A stretch of DNA of 63,863 nt, counting the filler, from Globobulimina sp. (taxonomy: Eukaryota), in assembly GCA_003354225.1 (NCBI GenBank). It is 34 parts of 34 records of this genome, joined end to end, with 100 filler letters (N's around TTAATTAATTAA, not from the genome) between each part and the next. Parts side by side here need not be neighbours in the genome. Positions count along the whole stretch, not along the records: positions 48,924 to 50,703 come from PIVH01012025.1; 33 more parts are not named here. One strand, given 5' to 3'. Below, piece by piece: positions 14,837-50,803 of the stretch; positions within the stretch are counted from its first letter, which is position 1, and every line of letters begins with the position of its first letter. Both the position numbers and the translations under genes were made by a program. Under the pieces are notes generated by a model that was not told the DNA's origin, searched no databases, and worked only from the letters and a program-made list of their open reading frames with translations.

Positions 14837-14918
14837 GGACACCTAGCTCAATTGGCAGAGCATTGGTTTGAATGGAAAGCAAACCAAATGGATGTAGGTT
14901 CGAATCCTACGGTGATGA
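14837..14918 (+). tRNA. tRNA-like gene or pseudo-tRNA (possibly Phe-GAA with a short insert)
   Basis: D arm GCTC/GAGC, anticodon stem TTGGT/ACCAA around a 15-nt loop, T arm GTAGG-TTCGAAT-CCTAC; acceptor stem only partly paired. Confidence 0.55.
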
Positions 14919-47229: not shown

Positions 47230-47285
47230 TCAATAGTTAATAATTTAATATTTATTTTTACAGTTTTCTAGTGTCAGAATCCAAG

Positions 47286-48524
47286 ATGAGTTACATGGCG
47301 TTTTTTGCATTTTTTCTCTGCCTTTTGCATTTAAATGAAGCAACAAAGGTGAATGTAGCAGTCACGTTGCACGCACAAGATATTTCTTCGATATTCTCAG
47401 AAGATGAAATATGGGGAATGCAGCTCCAAAATCAAACAGAAAACATTGTCCAGCTCAATGTAGTTATTGCTGCCTCCAAATTAAGCAAACTCAAAAAAGA
47501 AGCGATATTGGCATTGCATATAATTCATGGCGACGTCGAGCCAGTTATCGAGAGAGAAAGATTGCGCTTAAACAATCGAACAAAATGGACGGCTGCGATG
47601 CGTCCCGAGTTTTTTTTTTTAGAATATCGAGACTGGATTGAATATGAATTGTTCATTGATTATATATTGGTGACATACCCTTCCATTGCGTCGCGAAGTT
47701 ATACTGGCTCCACAGTGCAAGGCAGAGCTATTCCGGTCGTGACATTATCGACAGGCAACGCTGATGGAGCCGCAAAAAACTTATACATTCAAGCGGCTGC
47801 CCACGCGAGAGAGTGGCTGGCGAATGCCGCTACGATGTGGATATTGCACGCGTTGTGCGAGGGATATGGGAGTAACGAGCGGATCACCTCCGTATTGGAT
47901 ACAATTGACATTTATATTGTGCCTACTGTCAATATCGACGGCTATATCTTTAGCTGGGTTCAGGACAGAATGTGGAGAAAGAACCGGAGGGATAATGGCG
48001 ACGGCACTTTTGGAGTGGATTTGAATCGGAACTATGACGGACCGGCAAATACGTGGTGCACTCTGGGAGCGAGCAGCAATCCTTCGAGCAATAGTTATTG
48101 TGGAACCGCTGCTTACTCGGAGCCAGAGACGCAAGCTTCGAGGAATTTTATTTCCAACGCAGTGCACAACATTGGTGCTGCGGTGGATATGCATACCAGC
48201 GGACCATTGATTTTATGGCCGTGGGGGTCGCCCGATCCGGTGGAGGAGCCCTATTATGAGCAATTTGTGGAAGTGGGCGACGAGATTCAGGCGGCCATTG
48301 CGGCGGTGCATGGCGTGCAATATGTGTCGATGCAAGCGGTGAATTTGTATCCTACGTCGGGTACAATGAGAGACTTTGCTTTTGCGCAAATTGCAGCGTA
48401 TGGCTTTACGTGGGAAGGGAGAGGGCCTGGCTTTGATCCGCCTCCAGGGAATATAATACCTGCCGGCCAAGAACAACTTGCTGGCCATTTGACATTGGCG
48501 GAATATATGATCGATCGACGTTAA
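47286..48524 (+). CDS. Zinc carboxypeptidase (M14A), secreted
   Basis: Signal peptide; HAREW, N.DGY, WRKNR, GVDLNRN, SEPET, DMH, LYPTSG, FTWE. Confidence 0.95.
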   Translation: MSYMAFFAFFLCLLHLNEATKVNVAVTLHAQDISSIFSEDEIWGMQLQNQTENIVQLNVVIAASKLSKLKKEAILALHIIHGDVEPVIERERLRLNNRTKWTAAMRPEFFFLEYRDWIEYELFIDYILVTYPSIASRSYTGSTVQGRAIPVVTLSTGNADGAAKNLYIQAAAHAREWLANAATMWILHALCEGYGSNERITSVLDTIDIYIVPTVNIDGYIFSWVQDRMWRKNRRDNGDGTFGVDLNRNYDGPANTWCTLGASSNPSSNSYCGTAAYSEPETQASRNFISNAVHNIGAAVDMHTSGPLILWPWGSPDPVEEPYYEQFVEVGDEIQAAIAAVHGVQYVSMQAVNLYPTSGTMRDFAFAQIAAYGFTWEGRGPGFDPPPGNIIPAGQEQLAGHLTLAEYMIDRR

Positions 48525-49161
48525 CTTTGTAATATAAGTATTATACACAATGCATTTTTTTTAAGTATTACAACCCCTTTAACGATATAATCCAAAAGAT
48601 ACCCCCCTGCTCGATAAGTTGTATACATTTGATTCAATTATCTGAGAAACGCTTTGCAAATCCAGAAACGGTTTGCTATAGATTTGTCTTGGGTTTGTTC
48701 TGTGTTTGTTATAACTTTGTCATAATTAATATAACAATAGTACTGGACTTATAATCAACTAGTAATTTGTTGTACTCTTCTTTCTACTGAATTTCTACTA
48801 GCTGAAGTTTATAGATTTATTTTNNNNNNNNNNNNNNNNNNNNNNNNNNNNNNNNNNNNNNNNNNNNTTAATTAATTAANNNNNNNNNNNNNNNNNNNNN
48901 NNNNNNNNNNNNNNNNNNNNNNNGTGAGCAACCAACTCTAATTTATTATGGTGAGTTTAACTCCGATCACCGCAATGAAAATTAGCTCAATAGTTGTGTC
49001 TGCAGTGAGGTATTTTTTTTATAGTGTATATTTAAAAAAGGGATTACTGCACTTCAAAAACAGTTTATTGTATTGTTTTTTGGCGATGTGCGACATAATG
49101 ACAGACTCATTATAGTATTTTATGGAATTGCAAGATACACATAAATAATTATATAATCCAT

Positions 49162-50664
49162 TTACAATTTGGATTTAGTATTCCGTTTAAGCAATTTTTT
49201 AATATATTTTTGAAACGGTTTATTCTTCAAAAACCCATCGGTTCGCTCTTGAATGGCCTCCTCCTTAAAATCACTTTCCGTCCTTTCAATACTATTTTGT
49301 CTCGAAGCCATTCTCGATTGTGCTGCACCAAAATATTGTGCATAGAAATATTTCTTTTCTAAAACATCAACACATTTCGCCATCAATTTTACATTATTCC
49401 CATCATCACATTCATCCAAAATCTCATCCAACAAACCAATATCCACAGCCTCTTTTCCTTTAAACGGCACTGCAGTTTGCACAATAAATGTTGCCTTATG
49501 TCCTGAACCAACCACTCTTTCAATCTCAGCCAAAGTCTTACCGCCAGGCCCCAAACCATCCCTTGCTTCGCTCATTTGCATCACAGTCGATGCGAAACCA
49601 ATTCTGTAATCACAGGCAATTGCAAGTAGCGTCCCGCCCGCTGTACAGTAACCATTCAATGCTGCGATGATCGGAATATTTGATTTGTGGAACGCTAAAT
49701 ATGCTCTTCCAATATTTCGAAAATATTCCTTGGTAAATTCTTCATTTCCTGCGGCAAAAGTACGTAAATCAAATCCTGCTGAAAAAACTGCATATTTGTT
49801 TTGTTTTATTCGCTGTTTGGTATTGGCCGTTAATATAATACCACGACAATTTATATTCACACCATCACCATTTTTTCTGTTACTGTTCATATTTGCTGTC
49901 ATTGTTTGATCATTGATGGATTGTACAATATTTCTGACAGCAATCATTACATCGTTTGATAGAGCATGAACCGGCGGAGCATTTAGCAATAATTTAGCAA
50001 TAAAAATATTTCTTTTACTGGTCAATAAATATTCGTATTCAACTTTATTGTAAGGAATGTCTCCAAAATATTTCAATGCTTTGGCAATTACCCAATGGAT
50101 ATCGGCGGATTCTTGAACAAAATGACCAGCATTCGGCACCCATAAAATGGCACCATTTTGCATGGATGTTCCTAGCCTGACATTATCAGAATGCGTCCCA
50201 CTGTTTTTGCACATATATTTGTTCATTTTTAATGCAGTGTCGACTGTAAACACAATATCTAAGCAACCGTGCGCTTGGAATATATTTATTGCGTTCTCAA
50301 AATCACCGTTATTTAATTTAACTTGGTTCTGTTTGTAAAAAAAGTAAGCTTCTCGCTGTACATTCATACCATTGTCATGCGGTGATATTGGAACCATTGC
50401 CGGCCAGGCACGTAATGATAATTTCGATTCAGCGCTAAAAAATGGCGCAGCATATCCATTCAATTCAGATTGGGATAAATTTGGATTGGCTCTGCCCATT
50501 ACTTTCGATACGTTGATGTCAGGGTTTGTGGTGGCATATTTCCTCCAATTTATAAAACCTTTCGTAGGTTGTTGTGTTCCGTCACATATTGATGTGTTGA
50601 AAAATATTATTCGATTGAAAGCATTGCTGAAATGTAATGGCAATGTTAAGCCGATAATGCCACC
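49162..50664 (-). CDS. Haloalkane dehalogenase (DhlA-like) / enoyl-CoA hydratase-isomerase fusion with PTS1; last exon only
   Basis: Exon starts GGIIGLTLP after an AG acceptor; GFINWR, YAAPF, HGCLD, AGHFVQE; then LNAPPVHAL, FSAGFDL, NGYCTAGG..LAIACDYR; ends SKL*. Confidence 0.85.
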   Translation of the reverse strand, partial: GGIIGLTLPLHFSNAFNRIIFFNTSICDGTQQPTKGFINWRKYATTNPDINVSKVMGRANPNLSQSELNGYAAPFFSAESKLSLRAWPAMVPISPHDNGMNVQREAYFFYKQNQVKLNNGDFENAINIFQAHGCLDIVFTVDTALKMNKYMCKNSGTHSDNVRLGTSMQNGAILWVPNAGHFVQESADIHWVIAKALKYFGDIPYNKVEYEYLLTSKRNIFIAKLLLNAPPVHALSNDVMIAVRNIVQSINDQTMTANMNSNRKNGDGVNINCRGIILTANTKQRIKQNKYAVFSAGFDLRTFAAGNEEFTKEYFRNIGRAYLAFHKSNIPIIAALNGYCTAGGTLLAIACDYRIGFASTVMQMSEARDGLGPGGKTLAEIERVVGSGHKATFIVQTAVPFKGKEAVDIGLLDEILDECDDGNNVKLMAKCVDVLEKKYFYAQYFGAAQSRMASRQNSIERTESDFKEEAIQERTDGFLKNKPFQKYIKKLLKRNTKSKL

Positions 50665-50803
50665 CTTTTAATTTGGAAAATACATATGTTTTCTTTTTTT
50701 CAGNNNNNNNNNNNNNNNNNNNNNNNNNNNNNNNNNNNNNNNNNNNNTTAATTAATTAANNNNNNNNNNNNNNNNNNNNNNNNNNNNNNNNNNNNNNNNN
50801 NNN

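Follow-up and report, generated by a model that had tools for sequence, protein, structure and literature searches.

A peroxisome-tagged foraminiferal fusion of a haloalkane dehalogenase-type domain with an enoyl-CoA isomerase-type domain

Haloalkane dehalogenases (HLDs) are treated as bacterial xenobiotic enzymes, and an HLD-like domain in what appears to be an intron-containing eukaryotic gene, followed by a crotonase-fold domain and a peroxisomal targeting signal type 1 (PTS1), raises the question of whether such a fusion exists and, if so, what it might be for. The case arises in a stretch of 63,863 nt from the Globobulimina sp. assembly GCA_003354225.1 (hereafter the window), which consists of 34 contigs of 1780-1783 bp, sorted by length and separated by N/TTAATTAATTAA/N linkers, with guanine-cytosine (GC) contents from 29 to 43%. 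As a result, open reading frames (ORFs) that adjoin each other in the window do not do so in the genome, and the contigs may even stem from different source organisms. The fusion gene is confined to one contig, 48924..50703 (1780 bp). The fusion is real, spliced and recurrent in several Foraminifera, and both of its halves keep the catalytic residues that define their families. With a probability of about 0.6, the window holds the last, large exon of an expressed nuclear gene of foraminiferal type, in which an HLD-I domain is joined without a linker to a 3,2-enoyl-coenzyme A (CoA) isomerase with a single catalytic glutamate, the protein ending in the PTS1 tripeptide SKL.

A spliced fusion gene that recurs in several Foraminifera

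The original prediction, made from the window's letters alone, described one uninterrupted 500-codon exon ending in SKL and a stop codon, and this is what the minus strand contains: 500 sense codons occupy 50664..49165 without interruption, and TAA follows at 49164..49162. The frame continues upstream of the exon for one extra sense codon (AAG) and is closed by TAA at 50670..50668. Immediately before the exon's GGTGGC the minus-strand letters are TTAAAAG, with AG at 50666-50665 directly preceding the first Gly codon. At the base composition of the contig, the chance probability of a 501-codon open frame is ~5e-18, and none of the contig's remaining frames is open for more than 107 amino acids (aa). 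Every motif quoted in that prediction, YAAPF included, was verified by coordinate. The features of the locus, all on the minus strand, are as follows.

50665..50703, minus strand: 3′ part of an intron that extends past the contig edge, with the acceptor AG at 50666-50665; contigs of other sequencing runs diverge at 50665
50062..50664, minus strand: HLD-I-type domain, C-terminal two thirds (aa 2-202), from NCBIfam and PDB matches and alignment
50638-50664, minus strand: motif GGIIGLTLP in the exon translation
50542-50556, minus strand: motif FINWR in the exon translation
50545..50547, minus strand: cap-domain Trp41 (FINWR), candidate second halide-stabilising residue, from alignment with DhlA and 2xt0
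50440-50454, minus strand: motif YAAPF in the exon translation
50257-50271, minus strand: motif HGCLD in the exon translation
50257..50259, minus strand: Asp137 (HGCLD), candidate catalytic acid, invariant in alignments A2 and A4
50110-50130, minus strand: motif AGHFVQE in the exon translation
50122..50124, minus strand: His182 (AGHFVQE), candidate catalytic base, from alignment with DhlA and invariant in A2 and A4
50029..50079, minus strand: domain junction ALKYFGDIPYNKVEYEY, last hydrolase helix into first crotonase strand, with no flexible linker
49174..50043, minus strand: crotonase-fold domain of 3,2-enoyl-CoA isomerase type (aa 209-498), from Pfam, PDB and Foldseek matches
49765-49785, minus strand: FSAGFDL, first oxyanion-hole segment of the crotonase fold, aligned with FSAGLDL (1xx4) and F(S/C)AGADL (hydratases)
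49633-49644, minus strand: motif (T)AGG in the exon translation
49555-49575, minus strand: motif MSEARDG in the exon translation
49567..49569, minus strand: Glu367 (MSEARDG), single candidate catalytic base, aligned with Glu of 1xx4 and 5jbw
49165-49173, minus strand: SKL (PTS1), preceded by the basic stretch KKLLKRNTK, in the exon translation
49162..49164, minus strand: TAA stop codon
49122..49161, minus strand: short 3′ untranslated stretch, to where contigs of two runs (X1 and X2) end

Logan contigs from four sequencing runs (X1, X2, X6 and X8), belonging to four studies, were aligned to the gene's contig. They diverge from the window at about 1-5% of positions and so do not represent the window's own assembly. 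In three of the four runs the domain junction at 49990-50080, where independent sequence had been proposed as a check, lies within a single contig: X2 record 12 spans 49122-50665, X1 record 5 spans 49123-50460 (adapter letters stand directly before its first position) and X6 record 15 spans 49252-50430, while X8 covers the junction by short pieces only, none of them bridging. One contig in each of the four runs stops matching at 50665 and then carries an identical 30-letter continuation, the reverse complement of which, translated by hand in the frame of the exon, gives K-N-I-T-L-I-C-Q-D-W ahead of GGIIGLTLP. This elbow agrees with that of the orthologues P0126 (..NITMICQDWGGLIGLTLP) and P0132 (..NITLVVQDWGGLIGLTLP), and the tblastn alignments of orthologues begin at 50664. 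Since the contigs of four runs leave the window at the same position and continue in frame, the acceptor is genuine and the Asp nucleophile lies in the missing exon; the 500-codon exon thus begins at a splice acceptor of a eukaryotic gene, GGIIGLTLP comes right behind the QDW motif and the nucleophile exon lies outside the contig, all as had been predicted. The X2 contig reaches 282 letters past the exon, of which 30 were read. Elsewhere in the window, tblastn with the N-terminally complete orthologues located no upstream exon, the other matches being short (E at least 0.01). At 50514, one X1 contig, at about a third of local depth, lacks three bases, an in-frame deletion of one codon in the cap region.

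The fusion is not peculiar to this assembly. An HMMER scan of 1.84 billion representatives, together with a word-indexed search, retrieved eleven further proteins that span the junction (P0002, P0122, P0123, P0124, P0125, P0126, P0130, P0131, P0136, P0144 and P0161). P0002, which ends in SKL, aligns with 94% of the query at 39% identity. Bolivina argentea (EukProt) accounts for P0123, P0125 and P0136, as well as for a standalone isomerase-type relative, P0135; P0130 is Reticulomyxa filosa ETO08607.1, labelled 'hypothetical protein', and P0144 comes from a marine eukaryote transcript catalogue. Going by these homologues, the source organism is most likely a foraminifer or a close relative. A search for the same fusion in other protists had been suggested, and B. 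argentea and R. filosa both carry it; in one of the Bolivina proteins, P0123, Abhydrolase_1 and ECH_1 both clear their Pfam gathering scores. The N-termini of P0126 and P0132 are complete and align from residue 1 with bacterial HLDs, which leaves no further upstream domain; judged from these sequences, the full protein should measure ~630 aa. Introns in the orthologues are suggested where predicted proteins turn into unrelated tails: P0132/P0131 are split after GGHFLQ, and P0126 is cut after FGAGFD.

Other searches added little. A word-indexed search with family alignment A1 gave three proteins at E <= 1e-20 and missed known members, and is thus not a census. A scan of metagenome contigs for family loci with alignment A4 produced 219 pattern matches, none confirmed. 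Among ESM Atlas clusters of at least 50 members, the search turned up none with the same architecture, the sole lead being a bacterial ECH cluster with a score of 0.76. Searches of open-access papers and bioRxiv preprints, without their supplements, turned up no paper on the fusion or on a native peroxisomal haloalkane dehalogenase; by title and the start of the abstract, the papers listed for haloalkane dehalogenases and peroxisomes dealt mostly with HaloTag and HLD-based tools, soluble epoxide hydrolase (sEH) and unrelated topics. Both domains and the PTS1 are well known, and their combination seems to be undescribed. The earlier remark that no described protein with this architecture was known is matched by the publications searched; the architecture itself is shared by a gene family of Foraminifera that sits unannotated in public data.

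The two halves, the C-terminal signal and their relatives

The exon's hydrolase portion starts past the nucleophile elbow and takes in the cap domain together with the strands that bear the catalytic Asp and His. By far its best NCBIfam family, as for the N-complete orthologues, is NF002043 (DhlA-type haloalkane dehalogenase), which aa 2-110 match at E 2.9e-21 on profile positions 125-234 of 302. Searched against all PDB sequences, the N-terminal half (aa 1-209) gave nine distinct matches at E <= 0.001, and all nine are haloalkane dehalogenases, in keeping with the claim that this half follows DhlA and HLD-I. The best of them, 2xt0_A (5.3e-22), starts at chain residue 125, immediately past the D-W nucleophile elbow. 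For the N-complete P0126, the top nine PDB matches are HLD-I-type haloalkane dehalogenases (2e-55 to 1.7e-33), the next match falling to 2e-12, and the N-complete orthologues score 62 and 53 bits on Pfam Abhydrolase_1 (cut-off 25.8). Bacterial HLD-I enzymes of this kind are represented by PDB entries 2xt0, 1edb/1b6g (DhlA), 7avr, 6f9o, 4mj3 and 5esr.

Residue by residue, the comparison rests on alignment A2, which combines family members, the fungal relative Gonapodya prolifera KXS19520.1 and bacterial HLDs named as such by NCBI. Trp41 aligns with the Trp of DhlA FTAWKY, which presumably binds halide, and with that of 2xt0 FESWRD, in a column that is invariant in A2. His182 falls on the DhlA stretch DAGHFVQE, and the Asp137 column on the G-x-x-D-P-V-L-G motif of annotated bacterial HLDs; both residues are invariant in A2 and A4. 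The cap Trp, catalytic Asp and catalytic His that had been named from the window are thus all present and all align with annotated HLDs. Q-D-W is absent from A2 only in the truncated window sequence and is present in P0122, P0126 and P0132. Bacterial HLD-I enzymes therefore have in common with the fusion the alpha/beta-hydrolase and cap organisation, HG-x-PTWSYLYR (in the N-complete orthologues), the Q-D-W-G-G elbow, the cap Trp, the GHF-x-QE His and an acid Asp past the seventh strand, and P0126 residues 1-287 match 2xt0 at 2e-55. The fusion differs from them in being encoded by a eukaryotic gene with an intron, in its C-terminal crotonase domain and PTS1, in an extra stretch of ~16-20 residues between Asp and His and in an NCBIfam score below the cut-off. 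Two other identities were tried and rejected. A pairing of the MenH/MenB type (quinone-synthesis hydrolase plus crotonase) does not fit, the best models and structures being HLD and enoyl-CoA isomerase. A Renilla-type luciferase is unlikely, because the strong matches of the domain are to HLD-I and such luciferases are reported to descend from HLD-II (PMC12059646).

For the C-terminal half, the profile search that had been proposed for each half, and that had led to NF002043 on the N-terminal side, led to Pfam ECH_1 (77.7 bits against a cut-off of 27, aa 293-434) and ECH_2 (42.4 against 27.2), and its NCBIfam matches are enoyl-CoA hydratase/isomerase models. It matches 68 crotonase-fold sequences in the PDB, the best being 1xx4_A, the mitochondrial 3,2-trans-enoyl-CoA isomerase of rat (2.9e-15), next to the human enzyme 1sg4 (1.2e-13); no crotonase of the 4-chlorobenzoyl-CoA dehalogenase type occurs among the best 60 of the 68. 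FSAGFDL and TAGG align with the oxyanion-hole segments of 1xx4, 5wyb and 5jbw. Glu367 pairs with the Glu of 1xx4 (LNES) and with the second hydratase Glu of 5jbw (LTEV), while the position of the first hydratase Glu (GGGTE of 5jbw) is Leu in the fusion (AGGTL); the catalytic roles of the two Glu positions are those we assume for the crotonases. Nine of the ten family members that cover the site keep Glu367, P0135 having Gly. Taken from the alignment, this one-Glu pattern is that of an isomerase and bears out the earlier assignment of an ECI1-type Glu, as the aligned segments do that of both oxyanion motifs. Crotonase-fold enzymes switch reaction type easily, and for this reason the pattern alone does not prove the isomerase assignment.

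Mitochondrial ECI1/DCI (1xx4 of rat, 1sg4 of human) is the best match of the C-terminal half in both sequence and fold, and shares with it the single catalytic Glu and the FSAG-x-D and GG oxyanion segments. Identity is about 20-22%, and the two differ in that ECI1 is mitochondrial and the fusion peroxisomal by its signal, and in that the fusion carries an N-terminal hydrolase domain and, in the window sequence specifically, an insert of ~17 residues (aa ~257-273). Animal peroxisomal ECI2/PECI combines an acyl-CoA-binding domain, an isomerase and a PTS1. We take its architecture to follow a logic like that of the fusion (an accessory domain at the N-terminus, then a crotonase-fold isomerase, with a PTS1 at the C-terminus), with the difference that the accessory domain of ECI2/PECI is presumably of ACBP fold and binds acyl-CoA, while that of the fusion looks like a catalytic dehalogenase domain. 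To our knowledge, no homology between the two N-terminal domains is to be expected.

An AlphaFold2 model of 501 residues, built from the 130-row alignment A3, has a mean predicted local distance difference test (pLDDT) score of 92.1 and a predicted template modelling (pTM) score of 0.92; it lacks strands one to five of the hydrolase core. Confidence is low only at two lineage-specific inserts (about 151-160 and 261-270; the window-specific insert above has a pLDDT of 66) and at the extreme tail, where the last block falls to 37, from which the C-terminal tail is taken to be flexible. The final helix of the hydrolase (190-200) leads with scarcely a break into the opening strand of the crotonase (209-215), with a block pLDDT of 93-97 from 191 onwards. 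No other block of the family is as well conserved as this junction, which persists even where the hydrolase half of a paralogue is eroded. The conserved, linker-less junction and the high pTM suggest a fixed arrangement of the two domains. Foldseek gave 1xx4 (TMt 0.85) and 1sg4 (TMt 0.88) as best matches, with a root mean square deviation of 3.5-3.7 A; since the matches listed are all crotonase-fold chains, this comparison says nothing about the hydrolase half.

The protein ends in KKLLKRNTKSKL (KRNTKSKL), a tripeptide of the [SAC]-[KRH]-[LM] type on the tail of low pLDDT. As predicted, SKL is a PTS1, and it is conserved: nine of the eleven family members with a complete C-terminus end in SKL, the exceptions being P0127, which has an unrelated tail, and the R. 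filosa protein P0130, which ends in AKF. Judged from its sequence, the signal would route the protein to the peroxisome matrix via Pex5, a receptor reported in foraminiferal transcriptomes (10.1101/2022.07.20.500910).

Each half also occurs alone. PTS1-like ends (SKL, AKL or AKI) were seen in 9 of 165 retrieved hydrolase-only proteins: P0148 (SKL), P0139 (SKL), P0172 (AKL), P0150 (G. prolifera KXS19520.1, AKI), P0044, P0188, P0221, P0228 and P0265. These have the same HLD-I motifs as the fusion and lack its crotonase domain. On the other side, the standalone isomerase-type relatives P0129, P0135 and P0155 all end in SKL. A quick maximum-likelihood tree of 67 HLD domains, unrooted, places the 7 foraminiferal domains in one group (SH-aLRT 100), and a branch with 97% support has on one side the 7 foraminiferal domains, 5 PTS1-ended proteins and 2 others; odd composition was flagged in 11 rows of this tree, including all 7 foraminiferal ones. 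These relationships offer no more than a hint of an older eukaryotic group of peroxisome-tagged HLD-I proteins, from one of which the fusion would have arisen; the standalone proteins suggest that such proteins form a wider group in eukaryotes, so far undescribed. The HLD-I eukaryotic proteins reported here are at odds with a 2025 survey which places all the eukaryotic HLD-like sequences that it found in HLD-II (PMC12059646).

HLD-I domains also occur in other two-domain proteins, namely bacterial fusions of a tRNA-adenosine deaminase with an HLD (P0008; PF00383 + PF00561), in which the partner is a different one and lies on the N-terminal side; these fusions are prokaryotic and lack a PTS1. 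A functional parallel is offered by EPHX2, the bifunctional and partly peroxisomal sEH, an HLD-related alpha/beta hydrolase with an Asp-His-Asp covalent mechanism that is fused to a second catalytic domain and can bear a PTS1-like end. Its partner domain is an N-terminal phosphatase, and its cap uses Tyr residues for the epoxide and not two Trp for halide. sEH is not among the PDB matches listed for the window half (nine) or among the best 60 for P0126.

Possible role of the fusion and rival explanations

If both halves act as their motifs suggest, the Asp of Q-D-W would attack a halogen-bearing sp3 carbon, the leaving halide would be held by the Trp beside this Asp and by the cap Trp (FINWR), and a water activated by His182/Asp137 would hydrolyse the alkyl-enzyme ester to alcohol and halide. 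The isomerase half would hold the acyl-CoA thioester in the crotonase oxyanion hole (FSAGFD / AGG backbone), with Glu367 as a proton shuttle that would move a 3-double bond to the 2-position. Crotonases being trimers or hexamers, a trimeric disc of isomerase halves that bears three dehalogenase domains is probable. The most likely role of such a protein would be that of an auxiliary enzyme of peroxisomal fatty-acid beta-oxidation, which would handle odd-position double bonds and halogenated carbons of acyl chains. Coupling of dehalogenation to beta-oxidation, for example of halogenated algal lipids, may occur, as the original prediction proposed, and one may speculate that the fixed arrangement is compatible with an acyl-CoA anchored in the isomerase half, its tail reaching the hydrolase.

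Several observations weigh against an active dehalogenase-isomerase encoded by an expressed, spliced gene. The window lacks the first ~134 residues of the protein, and the start codon and ~40 N-terminal residues are absent from the run-contig sequence seen. The runs are not on record as RNA, and the same contigs would arise from a gene copy without introns in related strains; coding continuity across the acceptor holds whether the contigs are spliced transcripts or such a copy. The curated NF002043 cut-off of 265 bits is reached neither by the window part (76.2 bits) nor by the N-complete P0132 and P0126 (216.4 and 218.4 bits), and the domain is for this reason filed as HLD-I-like and not as an annotated equivalog. 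In alignment A2 the family has its own stretch of ~16-20 inserted residues separating acid Asp from His, and its His motif is followed by two additional residues; these could alter the active site. Among the paralogues, P0123 has Q-G-F for Q-D-W and lacks the cap Trp, and the hydrolase half of P0124 and P0125 is heavily eroded; in all three the junction block (K)ALK-x-FG-x-I....VEYEW is retained, as are the isomerase half and SKL, and the family can therefore function without dehalogenase chemistry. B. argentea carries a copy of the intact type too (P0136). The AKF end of the R. filosa relative is not a canonical PTS1. Among the 40 listed of 69 variants between run contigs and window (23 synonymous, 17 non-synonymous), five of the six in the hydrolase half change the residue, conservatively (V/I, K/R, A/G, S/G); the overall ratio is a weak sign of constraint.

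Could the ORF then be an assembly chimera of two genes, or a fragment of a dead pseudogene? Such an origin would suit a contig of only 1780 bp and a gene truncated at its 5′ end. However, the junction is crossed by single contigs of three runs belonging to three other studies and by eleven further proteins from other sources, the frame is open over 501 codons, the catalytic residues are kept at 39-45% identity and 23 of the 40 listed variants are synonymous. The chimera is rejected on the bridging contigs and on the recurrence of the junction in other sources, and an artefact or pseudogene of any kind is extremely improbable. It is unlikely, if far less so, that the fusion is real and peroxisomal and its hydrolase half not a dehalogenase in vivo, serving another electrophile (epoxide, ester or acyl-CoA thioester, through the Asp-His-Asp machinery) or acting as a structural or substrate-binding module. 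The score below the curated HLD cut-off, the lineage-specific insertions beside the His loop and the paralogues in which a dead or eroded hydrolase half leaves the junction helix and the isomerase in place all speak for this, and epoxide hydrolases presumably share the Asp-Trp elbow and the mechanism. Against it stand the conservation of both halide-stabilising Trp positions and of the acid Asp at its HLD-I position, and the PDB matches, of which all nine for the window half and the top nine for P0126 (above the drop to 2e-12) are HLDs; neither an epoxide hydrolase nor a thioesterase occurs among the nine matches of the window half or the best 60 for P0126.

A rather unlikely account, though one with a somewhat better claim, accepts two active domains and denies any coupling between them: the substrates would be unrelated, and the fusion would serve to share one PTS1 for import or to equalise the amounts of the two enzymes. 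Since isomerase-type and HLD-I-type proteins with PTS1-like ends also exist as standalone forms, each enzyme is evidently able to work alone in peroxisomes, which fits this account. The absence of a linker at the junction, the best conserved block of the family, and the pTM of 0.92, which speaks for a fixed mutual arrangement, tell against it, and are only suggestive. A dehalogenase-type domain and an isomerase acting on acyl chains in beta-oxidation is the account preferred here. A bolder version of it, which we regard as doubtful, is that Foraminifera, and perhaps other eukaryotes with PTS1-tagged HLD-I proteins, run an as yet undescribed branch of peroxisomal lipid catabolism that cleaves halogenated acyl chains. 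The dehalogenase domain would then have been built onto a beta-oxidation isomerase so that intermediates pass straight into the spiral, and the halogenated chains would come from algal or bacterial prey, or be formed in situ from peroxisomal H2O2 and seawater halides.

Were this branch to exist, eukaryotes would have their first HLD-I pathway, and beta-oxidation the first dehalogenase wired into it. At the locus itself, a spliced eukaryotic gene encodes an HLD-I domain whose catalytic pentad is intact; the domain is fused to an auxiliary enzyme of beta-oxidation and tagged for the peroxisome, in an arrangement conserved across distant Foraminifera, from the marine, rotaliid-type Bolivina to the freshwater, naked Reticulomyxa. 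Foraminifera are abundant in halide-rich, low-oxygen sediments, and the fusion offers a lead to a natural role for HLDs, the turnover of halogenated lipids, and adds to the unusual peroxisome biology of this group. The fixed arrangement of two domains may also interest enzyme engineers who work with the HLD scaffold.

Other observations in the window

Downstream of the fusion gene on the same contig, positions 49044-49103 are not covered by contigs of the four runs, and no RNA run is listed as carrying the gene; no conclusion is drawn from either. Beyond these positions, on the plus strand, lies a 47-base piece (48962-49008) between an AG and a GT. Contigs of all four runs cover it and extend past both its ends into several different, unrelated sequences. 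One frame is open throughout, and no second copy of the piece occurs in the window. It resembles a mini-exon, belonging either to a convergent neighbouring gene or to a gene family.

Three further features lie on other contigs. An uninterrupted ORF of 426 aa at 47244-48524 (plus strand), on a contig of 43% GC, has a His-x-x-Glu stretch that we take to resemble that of zinc carboxypeptidases. The contig at 52640-54511 (plus strand) is open from end to end (623 aa) with Ser/Pro/Thr/Asn/Gln repeats (SPSPSPSPS, TETETE), and this frame is either low-complexity coding sequence or open by chance. The sole Rfam match in the window is a tRNA at 14837-14918 (plus strand), with a score of 42.5 bits.

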